Source of the DNA: Acholeplasma brassicae
GTDB lineage: Bacteria > Bacillota_I > Bacilli_A > Acholeplasmatales > UBA5453
Direction: 5' to 3'
NCBI RefSeq assembly: GCF_000967915.1
Contig: NC_022549.1
Span: forward strand, 531,522 to 595,521
Length of the DNA: 64,000 nt
A program made the position numbers and the translations under genes. Below the pieces are notes generated by a model. It was not told the DNA's origin. It saw nothing but the letters and a program-made list of their open reading frames with translations, and made no database searches. This document shows positions 52,654-63,578 of the stretch, piece after piece. How positions within the stretch are numbered: the stretch's first letter is position 1; each line of letters begins with the position of its first letter.

Positions 52654-52739
52654 GTGGGCGTGGCGGAATGGTAGACGCGCATGTTTGAGGGGCATGTGGC
52701 TTAAAGGCTGTGTGAGTTCAAGTCTCATCGTCCACACCA
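52654..52739 (+). tRNA. tRNA-Leu (anticodon GAG), class II tRNA with a long variable arm
   Basis: Acceptor stem gtgggcg/cgtccac with one G·U, 3-bp D stem, anticodon stem catgt/gcatg with loop ttGAGgg, long variable arm, T arm gtgag-ttcaagt-ctcat, and a 3' ACCA. Confidence 0.8.
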
Positions 52740-52909
52740 TATTGAATGAAATGGTTTGATACAAAAGCGATTTACTAATCGCCTAAGGTATCGAATCTTT
52801 TTTTTGTTTTCTACCGCCATATATAATTACGTTTTAACAAACTTAAAAAAAGTGCTTGACATTTAAATTACGTTTGTGTAAACTTAAATTATGAAAGTGA
52901 GAGGTAGTT

Positions 52910-54589
52910 ATGGAAAATAAAAATTTAGTATGGGAATTTGCAAACAAAGTCAGAGGACGTGTGCCTGAAGAAATGGCAGTTGAATTTGTTATTTCATTTG
53001 CATATGATTATTGCAACAGAAATGATTTAATACCAGGAAGTGATACAGAATTACTTAACATCGCTGGAGAATCATTGGAACGAATACCAAGTGATCTAAA
53101 ATTTGATTTAGAAAATCTGTTTGTGGACTTAAGTTTCAATGAAATAAAAGGAATCGTTTCTAGTTCTCTATTTATAAAACAGAGATTTATGGATAATTCG
53201 AATGATAATCTGTTGGCTTTAGCTTCGGAGTTACTTGAACTATCGAATGGTGATTCACTTTTTGATTTAGGTAGTGGATTAGGTAGTTTTTTAATTGGTA
53301 CATTGAAATTAGCTCAGGAACGTTCAATTGAGTTGTCTGCTTTATATGGTGTGGAGATTAACTATAATCAACATGCACTTTCTAAGATGATACTAGAAAT
53401 ATTCACCTTTGATTCTTCGGTAAAAAGCAAGATTAACTATGCTAATATCCTAACCGATAAATACGAACTAACTTATAATAAAGGGTTTGTCTATCCACCT
53501 TTAGGTATGAAGTTGATGGGTAATGATCTAAACTATATTTCTATTTTCAAAAACATTGTTCTATCGACTCGAAACTCTGTTGAATGGATATTTATAGATA
53601 AATTATTGAATAATTTAAAAGGTGACGATGCTAGAGCGGTAGCACTTGTTACTGGTCGTACGTTATTTAGTGCAGTTGATAGAGATTATAGGGACGAAAT
53701 ACTAAAGAGTGGCATGCTTGAAGGTATCATTGAGTTACCACAAGGAATTGTCGATAATACATCGATCAAGTTATTCTTACTTATCTTTAGTAAAAATAAT
53801 AAGAATGTTCGTCTATTTGATGCGAGTATGTTCTCATCAAAAAGAAAGTTTAATGAAACTATTAAAGTAGATGTGAAACAAATTATAGATTTCTATTATG
53901 GAAAAGATGTAGCTAAAAAAGATGTTTCAGATTTAACTGATTTATCTAACTGGATTCCTTCGACAGCACTATTAACAATAGATTCACCAAAAAATGGTGT
54001 TAAATTGAGTGAAGTTGCACATGTTTTTACAGGCTCTCAATATACAGTCAGAAACTTTCAAGAAGTATTGACTGATAAAAAAACCGGTTATAAACTTCTC
54101 ACATCGAGTGATATACAAGATGGACTCATTGATGAATCAAATCTGCAAAACATCGATAATAAAGATGGTAAGTTAGATAAATTTGCATTGGAATATGATG
54201 ATGTCATTATGACAAGCAAATCATCGAAGGTTAAAATAGCAGTCATCGATTTTGAACCAAAGGATAAAATTATTGTAACTGGTGGTATGATTATTGTTCG
54301 TGTTGAGAAGAGTAAATTAAATCCAACATTTCTTAAGGTTTTCTTAGAATCAGATCAAGGACAATTATTATTAAAGAGTATTCAAAAAGGTATATCGATA
54401 ATTACAATTAACGCTACAGAACTTTCGAATATAATTATCCCACTACCTCAACTTGATGTTCAATATAATATATCTAAAAAATATAATAGAAAACTATCTT
54501 CTTTAATGGCACTTAAGGCAGAAATTCTAAAGATAGAAGACGAACTCAAAAACTTCTATTATGAAGAAATTGAGGAGGTACTATCTTAG
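52910..54589 (+). CDS. Type I HsdM-like N6-adenine methyltransferase fused to a single HsdS-type target-recognition domain; non-canonical motif IV
   Basis: HsdM_N-like start (VWEFANKVRG). Motif I DLGSGLGSFL. FVYPPLG where NPPF/Y is expected. LLIFSKNNKNVRLFDAS parallels the IVSKNKNKERLGKIQLIDAS segment of the adjacent hsdM. C-terminal TRD plus conserved HsdS-type coiled-coil. Confidence 0.6.
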   Translation: MENKNLVWEFANKVRGRVPEEMAVEFVISFAYDYCNRNDLIPGSDTELLNIAGESLERIPSDLKFDLENLFVDLSFNEIKGIVSSSLFIKQRFMDNSNDNLLALASELLELSNGDSLFDLGSGLGSFLIGTLKLAQERSIELSALYGVEINYNQHALSKMILEIFTFDSSVKSKINYANILTDKYELTYNKGFVYPPLGMKLMGNDLNYISIFKNIVLSTRNSVEWIFIDKLLNNLKGDDARAVALVTGRTLFSAVDRDYRDEILKSGMLEGIIELPQGIVDNTSIKLFLLIFSKNNKNVRLFDASMFSSKRKFNETIKVDVKQIIDFYYGKDVAKKDVSDLTDLSNWIPSTALLTIDSPKNGVKLSEVAHVFTGSQYTVRNFQEVLTDKKTGYKLLTSSDIQDGLIDESNLQNIDNKDGKLDKFALEYDDVIMTSKSSKVKIAVIDFEPKDKIIVTGGMIIVRVEKSKLNPTFLKVFLESDQGQLLLKSIQKGISIITINATELSNIIIPLPQLDVQYNISKKYNRKLSSLMALKAEILKIEDELKNFYYEEIEEVLS

Positions 54590-55110
54590 TGTATAATGCA
54601 AAGCAGTTATCCGAGATAAAACAAAAAATTATTAGAAAAATCACGAGTGAAGTTGACCGTGCTAATGAAGATGGATTAATTGAAGAGATTTTAGAACGAT
54701 ATGGCATTGTATTTGAGGAAACAAGCATTTCTGTAAACACAAGACTAATGAAAATCCTAGTATTCGGATCATTAGCTGGAAAGAAAAAAGACTTCCAAGG
54801 GGTATTAAATAGACTAGGTATTAACCTAAACAATGTCGAGTTTATTAATGACTATTCAGAACTCAAGAGATACCCTGTTGATACACTTAGGTTTTCAACA
54901 AAGTATTCAGACTTACTAATAGGACCTGTTCCGCATAGTCAAACAGGCATGGGTGATAATTCTAGTCTTATAGCGACAATAAAAAGTAATCCAGCAGAGT
55001 ATCCACGTGTACAACTTTTAGAAGCAAATAACAAATTAAAAATTACTAAAACAAACTTCGAAAAAGCCATAACATCAACACGTTATTTTGATGCATTAAA
55101 TGAATATTAG
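54589..55110 (+). CDS. Hypothetical 173-aa protein, translationally coupled to the M·S-fusion gene (taGTG overlap)
   Basis: GTG start overlaps the upstream TAG by 1 nt. No recognisable motif. Confidence 0.45.
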   Translation: MYNAKQLSEIKQKIIRKITSEVDRANEDGLIEEILERYGIVFEETSISVNTRLMKILVFGSLAGKKKDFQGVLNRLGINLNNVEFINDYSELKRYPVDTLRFSTKYSDLLIGPVPHSQTGMGDNSSLIATIKSNPAEYPRVQLLEANNKLKITKTNFEKAITSTRYFDALNEY

Positions 55111-55252
55111 ACTATCAATAGGTTTTATAAAAATAGAAGAATGATATTGTTTAATAAACAATTAAAGGTAAAAGTTGCTAAAATATGTTATAATTTTTTT
55201 AATATGAAGAAAGATTATTGTATTGCTAATGAAATAAGAAAGAAGAGATAAT

Positions 55253-57034
55253 ATGACAACTGCAGAGATAGGTAAATTAACTACAACAAATATTCAAGAA
55301 AAAGCAAATCTAATATGGGCAATCGCTAATCATCTTGTTGGATTGTTTAAGCCACATGAGTACGGTAAGGTTATCTTACCGATGACGGTACTAAAAAGAT
55401 TCGATGACGCTTTAAAAGAAACGAAACAGGAAGTTTTATCACTCAATAAGAAATTAAATGAACAAAAAACAATTGATACCATTAGAGATGGATTATTATG
55501 CAAAACTACGGGATATGATTTTTATAATGTTAGTCCATTTACATTTGCAAACCTTTTAGCTGATCCAGATAACATCGCATCTAATTTTGATACATACTTA
55601 AAAGGATTTTCGGATAATGTAAAAGATATTATTTCCAACTTTAAATTTGAACAAGTCCTAGAAACGATGCATAAAGGGAATGTCCTTTATGTTGTTATAC
55701 AGGAGTTTAATTCTAAGAAAGCTGATATGCATCCGGATAAAATCACCTCCATGGACATGGGCTATATTTTTGAAGAACTTATCCGTAAGTTCTCTGAATC
55801 CTATGATGAACAAGCAGGAGCACACTTTACTTCAAGAGACATCATATATTTAATGGCTGAGCTATTAGTCGCAAATGAAAAAGAATACATTAAACAAAAT
55901 GGTGTCGTTAAAACCGCATATGATATGGCCATGGGTACATCCCAAATGTTAGGGTGCTTAGATGAAAAAATGATAGAAATCAACCCGGATTCAAAGTTAT
56001 CTCTATTTGGTCAAGAATTTAACCCAGAAACATATGCAATCGCAAAAGCTGACATGCTAATCAAAGGTGGAAATGCTCAAAATATGAAGTTTGGTGATAC
56101 ATTGAATGATGACCAATTTTCTAACTATGAGTTTGATTACATAATTTCAAATCCTCCATTTGGTATTGACTGGAAAAAAGAAGAAAAAGAAGTTAAACAA
56201 GAATATTCAAAGCTTGGATATGAGGGTAGATTTGGACCAGGCTTGCCTGCAATTAGTGATGGACAAATGCTCTTCCTACTTAATGGTGTAAAGAAATTAA
56301 AAGAAGGTTCTGGTAGAATGGCAATCATTCAAAACGGGTCTTCACTCTTTACTGGAGATGCTGGTAGTGGTCCGAGTGAAATTAGAAAATACTTAATTGA
56401 AAGTGATTTGTTAGAAGCAATTATTCAATTACCAACTGACCTTTTCTACAATACTGGTATATCAACATATATTTGGATAGTTTCTAAAAATAAAAATAAA
56501 GAACGATTAGGAAAAATTCAACTCATTGATGCGTCTAATTGCTATGTGAAAAGAAGAAAAAACATTGGTAAGAAGCGTGTTGACCTAGATGATACATCAA
56601 TTGACTTAATTACTAAAGCCTATTTAGATTTCAAAGAAGTAAAATATGAAGAAAATGACTTAGTTGTTGAATCGAAAATCTTTGATAATGATTTCTTTGG
56701 GTACACAAAAGTAACTGTTGAATCACCAATTACAGATGAAAATGGTAAACCAATTCTTAAAAAAGGAAAACTTCAAGCAGACTCTAAGAAACGTGATACT
56801 GAATTGGTACCATTACAAGAAAATATTGAAGCTTTCTTTAAAGATAATGTATTACCTTTTAATTCATCAGCTTGGATGGATCGAAGCAAAGATAAAGTCG
56901 GATATGAAATACCATTTACAAGACTGTTTTATAAGTTTATTCCACCAAAGGCATCTTCAGATATATTCGCTGAAATCAAACAACTTGAAGAAGAAGAAAC
57001 ACTACTTATGAAGGAGTTGTTTGGGGATGAATAA
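55253..57034 (+). CDS. hsdM: Type I restriction-modification system methyltransferase subunit
   Basis: HsdM N-terminal domain, motif I, NPPFGIDW, and the conserved IWIVSKNKNK…LIDAS block. Confidence 0.9.
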   Translation: MTTAEIGKLTTTNIQEKANLIWAIANHLVGLFKPHEYGKVILPMTVLKRFDDALKETKQEVLSLNKKLNEQKTIDTIRDGLLCKTTGYDFYNVSPFTFANLLADPDNIASNFDTYLKGFSDNVKDIISNFKFEQVLETMHKGNVLYVVIQEFNSKKADMHPDKITSMDMGYIFEELIRKFSESYDEQAGAHFTSRDIIYLMAELLVANEKEYIKQNGVVKTAYDMAMGTSQMLGCLDEKMIEINPDSKLSLFGQEFNPETYAIAKADMLIKGGNAQNMKFGDTLNDDQFSNYEFDYIISNPPFGIDWKKEEKEVKQEYSKLGYEGRFGPGLPAISDGQMLFLLNGVKKLKEGSGRMAIIQNGSSLFTGDAGSGPSEIRKYLIESDLLEAIIQLPTDLFYNTGISTYIWIVSKNKNKERLGKIQLIDASNCYVKRRKNIGKKRVDLDDTSIDLITKAYLDFKEVKYEENDLVVESKIFDNDFFGYTKVTVESPITDENGKPILKKGKLQADSKKRDTELVPLQENIEAFFKDNVLPFNSSAWMDRSKDKVGYEIPFTRLFYKFIPPKASSDIFAEIKQLEEEETLLMKELFGDE

Positions 57035-58301
57035 ACTAAATATCGAAATCCCATATATTGAAAACCTTCCTAAATCATGGCGAATAATACCTAATCGATA
57101 TCTTTTCATCGAAAACAAGAATAGTGTTGGAAAAGACTTTTCTAAGTATCAATTATTATCTCTAACAACTACTGGTGTAAAAGAAAAAGATATTAATAGT
57201 TCTGGTGGCAAGGTGCCTGAATCATATGAAAAATATTTATCCATCAATAAAAATCAGTTGATTTTTTGCTTATTTGACCTGGATTTATCGGCAGTTTTTT
57301 CAGGTATTTCTAAGTTTGACGGGATGATTACTTCAGCATATAATGCTTATGATTCGACTTCATTAATATGTAATGAATATGCTGATTATTGGTTTCAGTA
57401 TGTTTTTACTAATAGATACTATATGATTTATTCGAAAAACATCAGATACTCAGTAACTGGTCAAGCATTTAAGGCTATATATACGCCTGTTCCACCTATA
57501 AATACTCAAAAAGAAATAGCACTTTTCTTAGATAATAAAACTAATAAGATAGATCAACTTATCAATAATCAACAGCAACAAATCGAAAAACTTAAAGAAT
57601 ATAAGCAATCACTAATTAGTGAGGTTGTTACTAAAGGATTAGATCCAAATGTTGAATTTAAGGATAGTGGAATTGAAATTATTGATAAGATTCCAAAAGA
57701 TTGGGGAATTATTAAAATGAAATATTTAGGCGAATCTCGTAATGGCTTAACGTACAATCCGAGTGATATGGTCGATGATGGTGAAGGAATTCTAGTTTTG
57801 AGATCGTCCAATGTTAGGGATGGGAAATTAATCTTTGATGATAATGTTTATCTTAAAATGCAGATTAAAGAAGACTTAATGCTAAAAAACGGTGATATTC
57901 TTATTTGTTCAAGAAATGGTAGCAGAGATTTAATAGGAAAAAATGCAATCATCGAAAATGTTGGACTATGTTCATTTGGTGCCTTTATGATGGTGTTTAG
58001 AGTTTCAAAAGCAAATCCGAAGTACATTAAGTATATCCTAGATAGCTTTATATTTAACTACTATCTTGGGACATATTTAACAGCGACAATTAACCAGTTA
58101 ACCTTATCTAATTTCAACAACATGAAAGTTATTTATACGACTAATTCCGATGAGCAAGAGAAAATAATTAGTTATTTAGATGAAAAATGTCAAAAGATTG
58201 ACCAATTAATCGAGTTAAAAGCAAAAAAACTACTAAATCTTGAGGAATTCAAAAAATCTCTCATCTATGAATACGTAACAGGTAAGAAAGAAGTATCATA
58301 A
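57021..58301 (+). CDS. hsdS: Type I restriction-modification specificity subunit (two TRDs)
   Basis: 426 aa with two variable TRDs separated by conserved coiled-coil repeats (…LKEYKQSLISEVVTKGL… and …LEEFKKSLIYEYVTGK). Overlaps hsdM by 14 nt. Confidence 0.85.
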   Translation: MGMNKLNIEIPYIENLPKSWRIIPNRYLFIENKNSVGKDFSKYQLLSLTTTGVKEKDINSSGGKVPESYEKYLSINKNQLIFCLFDLDLSAVFSGISKFDGMITSAYNAYDSTSLICNEYADYWFQYVFTNRYYMIYSKNIRYSVTGQAFKAIYTPVPPINTQKEIALFLDNKTNKIDQLINNQQQQIEKLKEYKQSLISEVVTKGLDPNVEFKDSGIEIIDKIPKDWGIIKMKYLGESRNGLTYNPSDMVDDGEGILVLRSSNVRDGKLIFDDNVYLKMQIKEDLMLKNGDILICSRNGSRDLIGKNAIIENVGLCSFGAFMMVFRVSKANPKYIKYILDSFIFNYYLGTYLTATINQLTLSNFNNMKVIYTTNSDEQEKIISYLDEKCQKIDQLIELKAKKLLNLEEFKKSLIYEYVTGKKEVS

Positions 58302-58724
58302 ATGAGAGATGCTAAATCAATTATTGGAGGAATTATATTATTGATACTTATTGCTACTGGAGTATTCTCGGTCCTACTAGATTTGACTAGTGAATTCATT
58401 AAACTGACTCTATGGATATTTCAATTAAGTTTAACTGATTTTGGATTATCTCCATCAATTGAAATCATTGTTAAATCACTGACTTTCATTCTATCTTATG
58501 CTTTGGTCGGTATTATATTTAGTGCAATTAGACTATTTAATTCAGATGTAATGAAATATGCTTATTTTGTAGTTTCAACGATGATTGGATTTGCATTGAG
58601 TGCACTCATTATGTTTTTACAAGAACATATCATCATAATTTCTTGGAGTATTTTAGGGATAACTATCATTACGATTTTCACAATAGTATTTTTAGTAAAG
58701 AAAAGAAACACTTTAAAGGGGTGA
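58302..58724 (+). CDS. Small 4-TM membrane protein inserted between hsdS and hsdR
   Basis: ATG immediately follows the hsdS stop (taaATG). Its stop is 4 nt before the hsdR start. 140 aa with four hydrophobic helices. Confidence 0.5.
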   Translation: MRDAKSIIGGIILLILIATGVFSVLLDLTSEFIKLTLWIFQLSLTDFGLSPSIEIIVKSLTFILSYALVGIIFSAIRLFNSDVMKYAYFVVSTMIGFALSALIMFLQEHIIIISWSILGITIITIFTIVFLVKKRNTLKG

Positions 58725-58728
58725 ATCT

Positions 58729-61722
58729 ATGAAAGATAATGAAAAAAGGTTTGAAGAGGATATAGAGTCTCATTTGATCAATCATGAGTATAGAAAACTG
58801 TCTATGCAAGGCTATGATGTATCAAAAGGTATTTATCTAGATATCCTTGTAGAGTTTATCAAAAAGACTCAAAGTAAATCATGGGAACGATATGAAAAAT
58901 ATTATGGTGATGAAGCACCTAATAAACTATATCGTAGACTAGAAGATTCTATTAGTCATCACGGGCTTCTTCATGTATTAAGAAATGGCATAAAAGATAT
59001 GGGGATAGACCTTTTTATCTGTTTCTTTAAACCTGAATCAGAGTTGAATCCAACTTTAGTTGAACGTTATGAAGGTAACATATTAGGTGTAACAAGACAA
59101 TTTGCATATTCACCTTTCAATAACAATACGATTGATATGGTCCTATCCATTAATGGTATTCCTTTTATTGCAATCGAGCTGAAAAACCAACTAAAGGGAC
59201 AAGATTATCGAAATGCCATGCATCAATGGCGTTACAATCGTGATCCAAAAGAACTGATATTCAGATTCAATCATAGAATATTGGTTTATTTTGCTGTAGA
59301 CCTATATGAAACATGGATGACGACAGAACTTAAAGGTACTGATACACATTTCTTACCTTTCAATCAAGGATCTAATGGTTCTGGTGTCAGTGGTGGCGCT
59401 GGTAATCCGCAAAACCCTTATGGTTATACCACATCATATCTTTGGGAAGATATATTGTCAAAAGCCTCTATTATAGATATACTTCATCGTTTTATTTCTA
59501 ACCCTAAGGATTCTAAAAAAATTATATTTCCTAGATATCATCAGTATGATGTCGTTAAGAAAGTATTAGCGGATGTTAAAGATAATGGTGTTGGTCAAAA
59601 GTATTTAATTGAGCATAGTGCAGGTTCTGGTAAATCAAATTCTATCGCTTGGATTGCATATAGATTGGCATCTGTCCATGATATAGATGATAAACCAATA
59701 TTTGATTCAGTTATCATTGTTACTGACCGTGTAGTACTTGATTCACAACTACAAGATACGATTAACGGCTTTGAACATAGAGCCGGATTAGTTGAAGCAA
59801 TTGATGATAAAAAGCGTTCAAGAGGCCTTACGGAAGCAATTAACGATAAGAAACGTATTATTATTTGTACCATTCAAAAATTCTTGTTTGCCTATAAAGA
59901 TTTCGATGAAATGGAAGGTAGAAAGTTTGCGATTATCGTGGATGAAGCGCATCAAGGTCAAACTGGTGCAAGTGCTAAGACCTTAAGAAGAGCACTGATT
60001 GATAAGAAAGTTGCAATTAAAGAGTATGCAGAGATGGAAGGTATTGAAGAAGATGAAGTTGACGATACGGATGAACTTGTTGCAGAAGTATTAGCCCAAG
60101 GACAACACAGTAATCAATCTTTCTTTGCATTCACTGCAACGCCTAAAAATAAGACAATTGAACTTTTTGGCAGAAGAAATCCATCCACTGGCAAATATGA
60201 ACCATTTCATGTCTACTCGATGAGACAAGCCATTGAAGAAGGATTTATTTTAGATGTACTCAAATACTATACAACCCTTCAAGATCAATTTAAGATAGTT
60301 AGAACCACAAGGGATAATCCTGAGGTCATAGAAGGACAAGCTAAGAGAGTCTTAGTTCGCTATTATAAAGAACATGGGTTTACCATTCACAAGAAAACCG
60401 AACTTATAATGGATAACTTCTTAAATAATGGTCAATTTAGAATTGATGGTAAGGCAAAGGCTATGGTAATTGCAGATTCTAGACCAAATGCAGTCAGATA
60501 CTATCAGGCTATTCAAGAATACATAAGAAACAATCCAGAGATAACTTCAAAGATTGGTGTTTTAGTTGCGTTTTCTGGAGAGGTTAAGCTAGATGGTAAA
60601 TCATATAGAGAAGCTGAGATGAATATCGATAGTGACGGCCATTTAATTAACTCAGATAAGAAACTTAGAAAAGCATTTAGAAGTGATAAATTCAATATTT
60701 TAGTGGTTGCAAATAAATATCAAACAGGATTTGATGAACCGTTACTACATTCCATGTATGTTGATAAAAAACTTCATGGTGTGAATGCTGTTCAAACGCT
60801 TTCTAGATTGAATCGCGTATATCCAGGTAAAGTAGACACTTTTGTCATGGATTTTGTAAACACGCATGAAGACATGAAAAAGTCATTCCAACCATTCTTT
60901 GAAACAACCTATTTAGATGGCCAAACAGATTATAATCGTGTCTATGATTTAAGAACTAAGATACACAGTTATATGCTATATAACGATCAAGATGTGGATC
61001 TTTTTGCCAAAATCAAAATAGATGCAGCAAAGAAACAAGACGATAAAGCACTTGGTCGTGTAACAAGTATACTAAAACCTGTCACAGATCAGTATCTTGA
61101 GTTGGATGAGAAGCAAAAATATGAATATAGGGATCTATTAAGAAAATTCAATCATGCCTATTCATATATCACCCAAATCGTAAGAATTAATGATAAAGAA
61201 CTATTTAAAGAGTTTATGTTCATTTCTTATCTAATCAATCTATTACCTAAAGATACTGCAGAAAAAATTAGTATTGATGACAAGATTAATCTAGAGTTTG
61301 CCAAACTTAAAGAGACATATAAAGGAAGCATAGAACTAGAAAAAACATCAGTTGATTTAAAACCTGAGCAATCAGTAGATGCAAAAAGAAAACCTAAATC
61401 TAAAGACACTCTTCAAAGTATCATTGATAAGGTTAATGAGCAATATATGGGACAATTCACTGATAGTGATAAAGTCATTATTTCTGGTATTTTTGAGATG
61501 TTTATGAATGATCCAGAAGTTAAAAAATATGCTCAATATGCCAAAGAAAATAATCCAGAAATGTTCATTAAGAGTTTATTCCCTGATAAATTCAAGGATA
61601 TAGCCTTAAGATTATTTACAGAAAATCACGAGTCATTTGAAAAATTATTTACAGACACATCCTTTTACGAAAGAGTAATGGATGCAATGGCTAAAGAATT
61701 GTACAAGAAATTAAGAAAGTAG
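58729..61722 (+). CDS. hsdR: Type I restriction enzyme endonuclease/helicase subunit
   Basis: N-terminal restriction domain and SF2 helicase motifs (EHSAGSGKS Walker A, DEAH-like IIVDEAHQG). 997 aa. Contains an in-frame 11-aa tandem duplication at about 59795–59860. Confidence 0.9.
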   Translation: MKDNEKRFEEDIESHLINHEYRKLSMQGYDVSKGIYLDILVEFIKKTQSKSWERYEKYYGDEAPNKLYRRLEDSISHHGLLHVLRNGIKDMGIDLFICFFKPESELNPTLVERYEGNILGVTRQFAYSPFNNNTIDMVLSINGIPFIAIELKNQLKGQDYRNAMHQWRYNRDPKELIFRFNHRILVYFAVDLYETWMTTELKGTDTHFLPFNQGSNGSGVSGGAGNPQNPYGYTTSYLWEDILSKASIIDILHRFISNPKDSKKIIFPRYHQYDVVKKVLADVKDNGVGQKYLIEHSAGSGKSNSIAWIAYRLASVHDIDDKPIFDSVIIVTDRVVLDSQLQDTINGFEHRAGLVEAIDDKKRSRGLTEAINDKKRIIICTIQKFLFAYKDFDEMEGRKFAIIVDEAHQGQTGASAKTLRRALIDKKVAIKEYAEMEGIEEDEVDDTDELVAEVLAQGQHSNQSFFAFTATPKNKTIELFGRRNPSTGKYEPFHVYSMRQAIEEGFILDVLKYYTTLQDQFKIVRTTRDNPEVIEGQAKRVLVRYYKEHGFTIHKKTELIMDNFLNNGQFRIDGKAKAMVIADSRPNAVRYYQAIQEYIRNNPEITSKIGVLVAFSGEVKLDGKSYREAEMNIDSDGHLINSDKKLRKAFRSDKFNILVVANKYQTGFDEPLLHSMYVDKKLHGVNAVQTLSRLNRVYPGKVDTFVMDFVNTHEDMKKSFQPFFETTYLDGQTDYNRVYDLRTKIHSYMLYNDQDVDLFAKIKIDAAKKQDDKALGRVTSILKPVTDQYLELDEKQKYEYRDLLRKFNHAYSYITQIVRINDKELFKEFMFISYLINLLPKDTAEKISIDDKINLEFAKLKETYKGSIELEKTSVDLKPEQSVDAKRKPKSKDTLQSIIDKVNEQYMGQFTDSDKVIISGIFEMFMNDPEVKKYAQYAKENNPEMFIKSLFPDKFKDIALRLFTENHESFEKLFTDTSFYERVMDAMAKELYKKLRK

Positions 61723-62075: not shown

Positions 62076-63578
62076 ATGGCAAGTATACCAATAGCTCATC
62101 ATACAATTGAGAAAAAGCATATGGATGTTTATGAATATGAAAAGTATTTAAGAAAGTATCCTCACCGAAGAAGCATTAATGCGATTAAATGTATCGAATG
62201 TGGGGATTTTTTGATATATTGCAAAGGCGATTATAATGTTCCATATTTTAAACATTCGCCATCGGAAAAGAAGCACATTTCTTGTTCTTTATATACAGAA
62301 GGAAAAGAATCGAAAACATTTGAAGGATTGTTTCGAAAGAGATTGTTAAAAGAAGAAGACATTTCTTTTAACTACGAACTTCTTTATAAGAATGGTAGTT
62401 GGAAAAGCGTAATTACAATACCACCACTCGATCAGAAAGAAATCAAAGATAATGAAAGAAATCAAACTTTAATCACTATAATTGATGGAAATAATACTAT
62501 TAAAACCCCAATTGATAACGGGCATTTGAACCCTGGAGATATTAAAAAAATACCCCTTACAAGGCTATCAAGTACGGTTGGAATAAGGATTGATGGAAAT
62601 GGTTCTGGAAACAATATTTTATATGATATGGAAGGCTTTCGTCCGAATGAGCAGTTATATTCAAATCTTATAATTCAAAAGTATGTACCTCTATCAAACG
62701 AGAAAGAGATAGATCTGAAAAATATAGGTTCATTAGTGTGTAAAAGAATCAGTGGGAAAGTTTACACCGGAAGACACTATATAATCTTTTCAAGCAACCC
62801 AAATTTTCATTTGAAAAATAACAGGAACGGCAATATTGAGATTAAAAGACTAAATGTGAAAAGAGATAACAAGTTCAACTATTATCCATTTGATATAGTG
62901 TTTAATAATGCGAACAATGAATCAAGAGATTTTTGTTACAATCGAAAATGTATTCTGACAGAGAAAAACGATGCAGTTATACTATGGCCACCACTAAAAT
63001 CCGTTGGCAATTATCGTTTCTATCCCAAAAACAAGAAAAAAATGTTCGTTTCGTTCGAAAATGAAAATAAAACGTTAGAATTACAAGAATATAATCTACA
63101 AAAATACACAAAAATTAATCCATTCTTTATGATTAAAGATTTTTACTCGAGCTATAATTATTATTATGTTAGTCTTGATAAATCAAAAAGAGATGCTAAA
63201 AATACTTTTACAACTGAAACCGATTATCTAGATAATCTAGAATTGGATACATTCGACAAAATATTTCATTTAAAGAGAGAGTTGTTCATAGGAATATTCA
63301 ATCGAAATGATAAATTATACATGAAAAGCACACTGCTGCTCTTTAACAATCAATTAGATAGAGTGATGGGTATCAAAAATAGGACAAATGAAGATGATAA
63401 CAAACTTTTAGATGCAATAAGATACTCAAAACAATTTGTAAGATTCGATACAAGGTTTTATGAAAAACTAAAAGATAAATATTCAAAAAATAATATTATT
63501 CTAGAGTATCTCGAACATTGTAAAAGAGTTGGGACTATTAAGATAAAGGCATTTGAGATGCTTTTAGAAGAGGGGTAA
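62076..63578 (+). CDS. Hypothetical 500-aa protein with an N-terminal Cys/His zinc-finger-like motif, in an AT-rich segment distal to hsdR
   Basis: CIECGDFLIYCKGDYNVPYFKHSPSEKKHISC. Preceded by a 350-bp AT-rich gap. No recognisable catalytic motifs. Confidence 0.45.
   Translation: MASIPIAHHTIEKKHMDVYEYEKYLRKYPHRRSINAIKCIECGDFLIYCKGDYNVPYFKHSPSEKKHISCSLYTEGKESKTFEGLFRKRLLKEEDISFNYELLYKNGSWKSVITIPPLDQKEIKDNERNQTLITIIDGNNTIKTPIDNGHLNPGDIKKIPLTRLSSTVGIRIDGNGSGNNILYDMEGFRPNEQLYSNLIIQKYVPLSNEKEIDLKNIGSLVCKRISGKVYTGRHYIIFSSNPNFHLKNNRNGNIEIKRLNVKRDNKFNYYPFDIVFNNANNESRDFCYNRKCILTEKNDAVILWPPLKSVGNYRFYPKNKKKMFVSFENENKTLELQEYNLQKYTKINPFFMIKDFYSSYNYYYVSLDKSKRDAKNTFTTETDYLDNLELDTFDKIFHLKRELFIGIFNRNDKLYMKSTLLLFNNQLDRVMGIKNRTNEDDNKLLDAIRYSKQFVRFDTRFYEKLKDKYSKNNIILEYLEHCKRVGTIKIKAFEMLLEEG

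Follow-up and report, generated by a model that had tools for sequence, protein, structure and literature searches.

Transcriptional control of Type I restriction-modification (R-M) systems is poorly understood, and the known controllers are small helix-turn-helix (HTH) proteins. RptR is a dedicated repressor of Type I loci (PMC12255303), a C protein has been described at a Type I locus in Mycoplasma gallisepticum, and the Type II methyltransferases (MTases) SsoII, Ecl18kI and EcoRII repress via a fused HTH (PMC12707154). Esub1 of Streptococcus pyogenes (8VSQ/8VSR) is a homodimer of half specificity subunits with two identical DNA-binding heads, for which its authors propose a role as transcription factor and whose DNA-binding face is blocked by the phage protein paratox (PMC11754733). 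In Ronin, hsdM and hsdS are separate genes, the NPPF motif is intact and a 61-aa transmembrane effector is encoded as well, usually in genomes that lack hsdR (bioRxiv 10.1101/2023.04.06.535777). In 7EEW, an M-S fusion methyltransferase from Vibrio vulnificus YJ016, an HsdM-like domain, one target recognition domain (TRD) and a helix are joined in one polypeptide. Here, we analyzed a stretch of 64,000 nucleotides from Acholeplasma brassicae (contig NC_022549.1, positions 531,522 to 595,521), called the window in the following, which contains a two-gene cassette directly upstream of a complete Type I system. The first gene encodes a 559-aa protein resembling a fusion of a modification (M) and half a specificity (S) subunit, termed MS-like protein, and the second a 173-aa protein, termed p173.

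Literature searches found no described equivalent of this cassette, only the analogues compared here. The MS-like protein has the same domain order in one chain as 7EEW, and for both a homodimer equivalent to M2S1 is expected. Unlike 7EEW, its motif IV is degenerate ([FY]PP[LF]), which points to the lack of a functional MTase active site, its TRD is conserved and not variable, its gene lies upstream of a separate, complete hsdMSR operon, and palindromes are present in its own promoter. Esub1, at about 200 aa, stands alone, has neither an MTase-like domain nor a known target site and is not encoded beside a Type I system, whereas in the MS-like protein TRD and helix are fused to an MTase-like domain and the gene does adjoin such a system. 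The cassette resembles C proteins, RptR and the regulatory MTases in that a putative regulator heads an R-M locus and repeated or palindromic candidate operators overlap its own promoter. However, C proteins and RptR are small HTH proteins and the SsoII type carries its HTH on an active MTase, while the cassette would combine a TRD as putative reader on a dead scaffold with a Rossmann-like partner. Common to Ronin and, as proposed here, the cassette is the use of HsdM/HsdS-like proteins beyond methylation together with a tightly linked small gene, catalysis being dispensable in Ronin. In contrast to Ronin, the cassette has fused M and S parts, an apparently dead motif, a soluble partner of 173 aa and an adjoining hsdR in most loci, and nothing like the transmembrane effector RonA was seen, as the p173 model gave no membrane-protein match and p173 no PADLOC match.

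The MS-like protein and p173

The MS-like gene (52910..54589, forward strand) starts with ATG and is preceded by a ribosome binding site GAGAGG at 52899-52904. The gene of p173 (54589..55110, forward strand) starts with GTG and has a GGAGG 10 nt upstream. The TAG stop codon of the first gene and the GTG start codon of the second share their G (taGTG), resulting in a 1-nt overlap, which indicates that p173 is translationally coupled to the MS-like gene. In this respect the initial annotation of the stretch, which had been made from the sequence alone, holds for the coordinates of both open reading frames (ORFs), the overlap and the placement between tRNA-Leu and hsdMSR. Between close orthologues, ratios of non-synonymous to synonymous substitution rates (dN/dS) were 0.09-0.16 for the MS-like gene as well as for p173, indicating that both ORFs are real and under purifying selection.

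Within the 559-aa protein, a helical N-terminus (residues 1-100) is followed by an N6_Mtase domain (residues 101-345), a TRD (residues 346-512, nt 53945-54445) and a coiled-coil conserved-region helix (residues 515-558, nt 54452-54583). The MTase domain was recognized by Pfam N6_Mtase (PF02384) on residues 102-341 (E=1.2e-20), and NCBIfam models matched the protein, too. Motif I DLGSGLGSFL was confirmed at residues 119-128 (nt 53264-53293). In a profile-profile alignment with HsdM (hhalign, probability 99.4), the LLIFSKNNKNVRLFDAS block was found aligned with the HsdM block '...K.K....i.fIDAS', and YPPL as motif IV (residues 195-198, nt 53492-53503) was placed exactly opposite NPPF of HsdM, with F/Y opposite N. 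The chain contains a single TRD, not two. Pfam Methylase_S (PF01420) matched it sub-threshold (E=3.4e-4, 21.3 bits vs a cut-off of 22), and the Specificity_I models of PADLOC matched residues 347-535 (E=4e-19). An AlphaFold model (predicted local distance difference test, pLDDT, 87; predicted template modelling score, pTM, 0.82) ended in a 44-residue helix comprising residues 515-558. With Foldseek, the best match of this model was 7eew_A (E=2.4e-20, 571 aligned columns, 13% identity), followed by HsdM subunits and the monomeric gamma-class enzymes CamA, M.BseCI and M.TaqI. The best PDB sequence match of TRD plus helix was Esub1 (8vsr/8vsq), with E=5.5e-16 for the profile and E=4e-8 for the single sequence.

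Thus, the initial annotation was right in describing a single-chain M+S-like protein with motif I, the LLIFSKNNKNVRLFDAS block, a non-canonical motif IV, one HsdS-like TRD and a coiled-coil helix. Its HsdM N-domain was not recovered, as N-terminal fragments of six members gave no match to HsdM_N (PF12161) even at E<=1 and residues 1-95 did not align to HsdM profiles by hhalign; a W-x-x-A-N-x-x-R-G resemblance was non-significant. Domain searches also revealed no HTH in the MS-like protein, including its N-terminal 100 residues, or in p173.

More than 200 full-length homologues of conserved length (about 560 aa) were found, mostly in uncultured Bacilli and Mollicutes-like gut or environmental bacteria, and are annotated in databases as 'N-6 DNA methylase' or 'type I restriction enzyme M protein'. 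Counterparts in Acholeplasma laidlawii or close relatives are 94.6-97.1% identical to the protein of the window. Among 121 aligned sequences, none has N, D or S at position 1 of motif IV (F in 110, Y in 9, V and C in one each), so that the family follows a [FY]PP[LF] pattern instead of the canonical (N/D/S)PP(F/Y/W). We know of no N6-adenine or N4-cytosine MTase that works without the polar N/D/S at this position. The adjoining HsdM proteins show NPP[FY] in all 16 cases checked. The residues of the S-adenosylmethionine (AdoMet) pocket are kept, with D119, G123 and G125 of motif I in 120/121 rows (the remaining row being a gap), E/D149 of motif II in 121/121 and N/D179 of motif III in 119/121. 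Mean pairwise identity within the family is highest in the TRD (63%), compared to 48% in the MTase domain and 30% in the N-terminus. True HsdS proteins, in contrast, have two TRDs per chain, which are hypervariable between relatives. The high conservation of its TRD implies that the MS-like protein reads one conserved target. Judged from these sequence features, it is best read as a conserved pseudoenzyme derived from a Type I MTase fused to half a specificity subunit, with the AdoMet pocket kept and the catalytic Asn/Asp lost; the option of a catalytically dead DNA-recognition module, already raised in the initial annotation, therefore fits best.

The partner p173 had been noted as an ORF without recognizable motif, which agrees with the lack of any match in Pfam, NCBIfam, PADLOC or PHROGs. 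Its model shows a long N-terminal helix and a Rossmann/flavodoxin-like alpha/beta domain, and neither the model nor PADLOC gave a toxin, nuclease, membrane or other effector-like feature. When 1.84 billion cluster representatives were searched with a p173 profile, 752 relatives were obtained at E<=1e-3, almost all of them stand-alone proteins of 165-185 aa. In viral contigs, a search with p173 gave no relatives. Invariant residues are only Y89 and H116, the latter within a GPxPH loop. The distant member P0262 is also located between an N6_Mtase-like gene and hsdMSR. In P0252 (L084 128-1390; 420 aa), a p173-like domain forms the C-terminus and is preceded by a WYL and a WCX domain, and the WYL-WCX architecture resembles transcription regulators of defence islands such as BrxR/CapW. 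In the follow-up of longer proteins with a p173 domain, two contigs with other contexts (L085, L086) provided no clear lead. p173 is probably a regulatory partner of the MS-like protein.

The cassette promoter and its palindromic boxes

A promoter scan upstream of the MS-like gene revealed a cassette promoter with 10/12 matches and a 17-nt spacer, whose -35 hexamer TTGACA (52856..52861, forward strand) is kept across loci. It is accompanied by two 18-bp palindromes, box 1 (TACGTTTTAACAAACTTA, 52828..52845) and box 2 (TACGTTTGTGTAAACTTA, 52869..52886). Box 1 ends 10 nt ahead of the -35 hexamer, and the right half of box 2 includes the -10 hexamer TAAACT (52879-52884). Across loci the same order was observed, i.e. 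a palindrome with the consensus TAAGTTT-N4-AAACTTA, 7-10 nt, TTGACA and a second palindrome whose right half provides the -10, and nearly all loci have both boxes in this constant arrangement relative to the promoter. The box centres are 41 bp apart in the window and 39-41 bp in six measured loci of class A (see below). The half-site centres within a box are 11 bp apart, which suits the two TRDs of a coiled-coil dimer.

The exact consensus occurs within the window only at boxes 1 and 2, and in related loci it is limited to the roughly 170 bp that precede MS-like genes. A position weight matrix (PWM) found 113 sites in 951 kb, 111 of them inside a 280-bp promoter interval, and in the window the two promoter boxes only; as the PWM was trained on promoter sites, the rarity of sites elsewhere is its sole independent evidence. 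We know of no resemblance of the boxes to LexA, CodY, Rex or cre sites, and operators of a known global regulator were rejected since almost none lies outside the promoters in these 951 kb. RNA hairpins were also rejected, by reasoning, as box 1 is located upstream of the -35 and hence not transcribed from this promoter, and the stems are AT-rich and comprise only 7 bp.

Different classes of boxes could be distinguished. Class A (AAGTTT-N4-AAACTT) includes the boxes of the window, class B (GGTTTT-N2-AAAACC) is confined to two subclades, and a third form, TTGGTT..AACCAA, is found in a distant member at the same two positions. The box sequence varies with the clade of the MS-like protein, across unrelated hosts, and the class-switching residues include Q377P and Y378L within an otherwise invariant TRD motif. 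One metagenome-assembled genome (MAG; CALBHT01) carries both a class A (L011) and a class B locus (L018), each cassette with its own Type I system; this coexistence speaks for orthogonal pairs of protein and operator and against a host factor. Moreover, the boxes are kept in loci without p173 (L020, L052, L067, L070, L073) and in loci without an HTH gene, leaving the MS-like protein as the only constant candidate binder.

Cassettes ahead of interchangeable Type I systems

To describe the genomic context, 83 loci with relatives of the 559-aa protein were fetched from genomes and metagenomes and their ORFs labelled by locally built profiles; p173 was counted over the 75 loci with enough downstream DNA and the Type I genes over the 52 loci whose downstream sequence measured 3.5 kb or more. 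In 65/75 loci the MS-like gene is immediately followed by p173, which is thus a conserved coupled partner, as had been assumed. The description of the gene pair as solitary and independent of hsdMSR, however, does not stand, because a same-strand hsdM (31 loci) or hsdR (14 loci) is the first Type I gene directly downstream in 45/52 loci, in some cases overlapping. Cassette-hsd gaps start from a 17-nt overlap (L018) and are at most 100 bp in 16/54 loci; in L067 and L070, which have no p173, hsdM starts 14-15 nt past the stop codon of the MS-like gene. In L006, L044 and L046 the genes after the cassette match neither hsdM nor hsdR, with three ORFs without Pfam match in L006, and may be other cargo or remnants.

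The Type I genes behind similar cassettes can be very different. Between the window and L001, the MS-like proteins are 97% and the p173 proteins 98% identical, whereas hsdM and hsdR share only 23-24% identity. Overall, cassettes of 97-99% identity are found ahead of hsdM/hsdR of 20-29% identity, and the same mismatch was seen in the pairs L023/L025, L033/L034, L047/L048 and L014/L050. The cassette therefore forms a conserved module at the head of Type I systems that are themselves interchangeable. An exchange junction can be located in the window just before the hsdM start (about 55230-55250). The intergenic region between p173 and hsdM (55111..55252) is shared with L001 although the Type I family there is different, including a perfect palindrome ATTGTTTAATAAACAAT (55146-55162) and an extended -10-like element TGTTATAAT (55186-55194), both of which are also present in L002 and L021. 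Neither a terminator nor an operator box was found in this region.

The complete Type I system of the window (55253..61722, forward strand) comprises hsdM (55253-57034) with a canonical NPPF, hsdS (57021-58301) with two TRDs, a 140-aa ORF (58302-58724) and hsdR (58729-61722). The 140-aa ORF is hydrophobic and membrane-like without any family match and is reminiscent of the 'restriction-linked ORFs' inside some Type I loci; homologues occupy the same position in L002, L008, L018, L021, L030 and L071. Right after hsdR, a 500-aa ORF (62076-63578, forward strand) without Pfam, NCBIfam or PADLOC match and with a weak PHROG match (E=0.0011) as its sole match could be a further island gene. At the upstream edge of the island, ARAGORN detected a tRNA-Leu(gag) gene (52654..52739, forward strand), 170 bp ahead of the 559-aa ORF. 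Cassettes are often located 150-600 bp downstream of a tRNA gene for Leu, Ser, Asn or Glu (window, L011, L012, L021, L057, L065), which suggests that islands insert or are exchanged at tRNA genes.

Further features were observed in the other loci. An XRE-type HTH_3 ORF of 64-88 aa (LSQxELAxxLGVSxxTVNRWExG) lies ahead of the hsd genes in L003, L011, L012, L023-L029, L032, L033, L035, L043-L045, L047, L048 and L059 and probably controls the Type I genes in the manner of a C protein. Additional inverted hsdS fragments beside an ORF of about 280-320 aa, a putative recombinase, look like a phase-variable hsdS shufflon in L023-L029, L032, L041, L048, L050 and L059. The complete genome of A. laidlawii 8195 (L002 15787-18780) has hsdR in two pieces, with ORFs of 793 and 168 aa, which is probably due to a frameshift or an inactivated restriction subunit; cassette and hsdM are intact.

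Proposed mechanism, alternatives and significance

We propose that the MS-like protein is an AdoMet-binding, non-catalytic M·S homodimer acting as repressor of its own operon and, by way of transcriptional read-through, of the Type I genes as well, a reading for which we consider the chances about even. Dimerization would be mediated by the C-terminal conserved-region helix, as in half-HsdS proteins and Esub1, and would place two identical TRDs at a distance of about one turn of the DNA. These would bind the 18-bp palindromes flanking the -35 and overlapping the -10 of the own promoter, and binding would repress the operon of p173 and, through read-through, the downstream hsd genes. The small Rossmann-like p173 may serve as co-repressor, anti-repressor or ligand sensor. 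Dimerization, binding of the TRDs to the boxes, repression, read-through over longer gaps and the role of p173 are what we infer from sequences and predicted structures. A control function acting in cis would explain that the cassette lies upstream and on the same strand whatever Type I family follows. Where gaps are short or absent, the cassette promoter would certainly drive the Type I genes, too, and in the window read-through into hsdM is possible because no terminator lies in between. The initial annotation had favoured a defence module of sensor plus effector; as p173 has no effector-like feature and a conserved operator pair is present at the cassette promoter, we favour transcriptional control.

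Several observations weigh against this proposal, in addition to the training of the PWM on promoter sites. The link between protein and boxes is correlative, and operator boxes are missing ahead of the hsd genes, where no enrichment was found before hsdM/hsdR (7 loose matches vs 3 expected, four of the 7 being one palindrome common to the window, L001, L002 and L021). No Type I system follows in 7/52 loci. Control of the hsd genes may be indirect or absent in many loci, given the separate promoter-like element ahead of hsdM in the window (TGTTATAAT), the median gap of 259 bp between p173 and the first hsd gene, and the XRE-HTH gene of its own that 17/54 loci, although not the window, carry between p173 and hsd. 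It is also not evident why a repressor should need a full AdoMet-binding MTase domain. This last point would be explained by an extension of the repressor model that we regard as possible but doubtful, namely a switch for counter-counter-defence. The AdoMet-loaded dead dimer on its operators would mimic a Type I MTase and sense anti-restriction attack, in that DNA mimics such as Ocr/ArdA or the destruction of AdoMet by T3-type S-adenosylmethionine lyases would strip the repressor from the DNA. As a result, p173 would be induced and the downstream Type I system boosted or renewed. If true, this would explain the kept MTase scaffold and AdoMet pocket, the catalytic death and the pairing with any Type I family.

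Two alternatives to repression by the MS-like protein appear unlikely to a similar degree. According to the first, the cassette is a Ronin-like decoy or guard, in which the dead M·S dimer holds p173 inactive until binding of Ocr/ArdA frees p173 as abortive-infection effector. Ronin itself, an HsdMS pair with a small effector that is independent of MTase catalysis, provides the precedent; furthermore, Ocr was co-crystallized with the M-S fusion 7eew, which is the best match by structure, paratox binds the DNA-binding face of the related Esub1, and MS-like gene and p173 are translationally coupled. Yet p173 shows neither a toxin, nuclease or membrane feature nor a PADLOC match, and in several clades p173 is missing while MS-like gene, boxes and Type I system are all retained. 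A guard acting in trans would also leave the upstream same-strand position and the conserved operators unexplained. According to the second, the boxes are real operators of another factor, for example p173, a host regulator or elements associated with RNA polymerase, and the MS-like protein acts otherwise, e.g. in assembly or modulation of the Type I system. Such a factor would be compatible with the fact that the identity of the box-binding protein rests on correlation, and the p173 domain is indeed fused to a WYL-WCX regulator in P0252. It would have to be reconciled with boxes that are kept in loci lacking p173 and in loci lacking an HTH gene and with box classes that track the MS-like clade across unrelated hosts, with two classes in one genome, and it would leave a conserved TRD without a conserved target.

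A very improbable explanation is that the dead M·S dimer serves as alternative recognition subunit, recruiting the neighbouring HsdR to a fixed target, e.g. a modified base, for which protection by methylation is not needed. Conservation of the TRD together with loss of catalysis and the proximity of hsdR in most loci would be in line with this. However, the neighbouring HsdR proteins are of different families and only 20-29% identical beside near-identical cassettes, making specific docking unlikely, and since the only good target sites lie in the own promoter, the result would be self-restriction. Equally hard to credit is an active, unusual orphan MTase using [FY]PP[LF] and methylating the palindrome or another site as an epigenetic switch. 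All AdoMet-binding motifs are intact and databases name the protein 'N-6 DNA methylase', but the motif IV substitution is family-wide. In addition, METTL14, the paralogue in the METTL3-METTL14 pair that has EPPL without the polar residue of (D/N)PP(W/F/Y), is an inactive, nucleic-acid-binding scaffold, which counts against an active enzyme here; METTL14 differs from the MS-like protein in being a eukaryotic member of another MTase class that acts on RNA and has no TRD. Finally, a decaying hsdM/hsdS duplicate with a frameshifted remnant ORF, for which the degenerate catalytic motif is the sole support, has practically no probability left and is excluded by the low dN/dS in both genes, the conserved length of more than 200 homologues, the 752 representatives of p173 and the conserved promoter.

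The MS-like family appears to be large, and in it a Type I M-S fusion has apparently become a reader of DNA that binds AdoMet, is non-catalytic and has operators of its own. If the proposed repression is true, the protein would to our knowledge be the first regulator with a TRD as DNA-reading head. It would also correct a systematic annotation error that inflates the counts of active MTases and of predicted methylation motifs, and it would define a conserved genomic 'dock' at which a Type I system of one family is exchanged for that of another. Moreover, the idea that bacteria sense anti-restriction attack via a mimic of the attacked enzyme would become testable.

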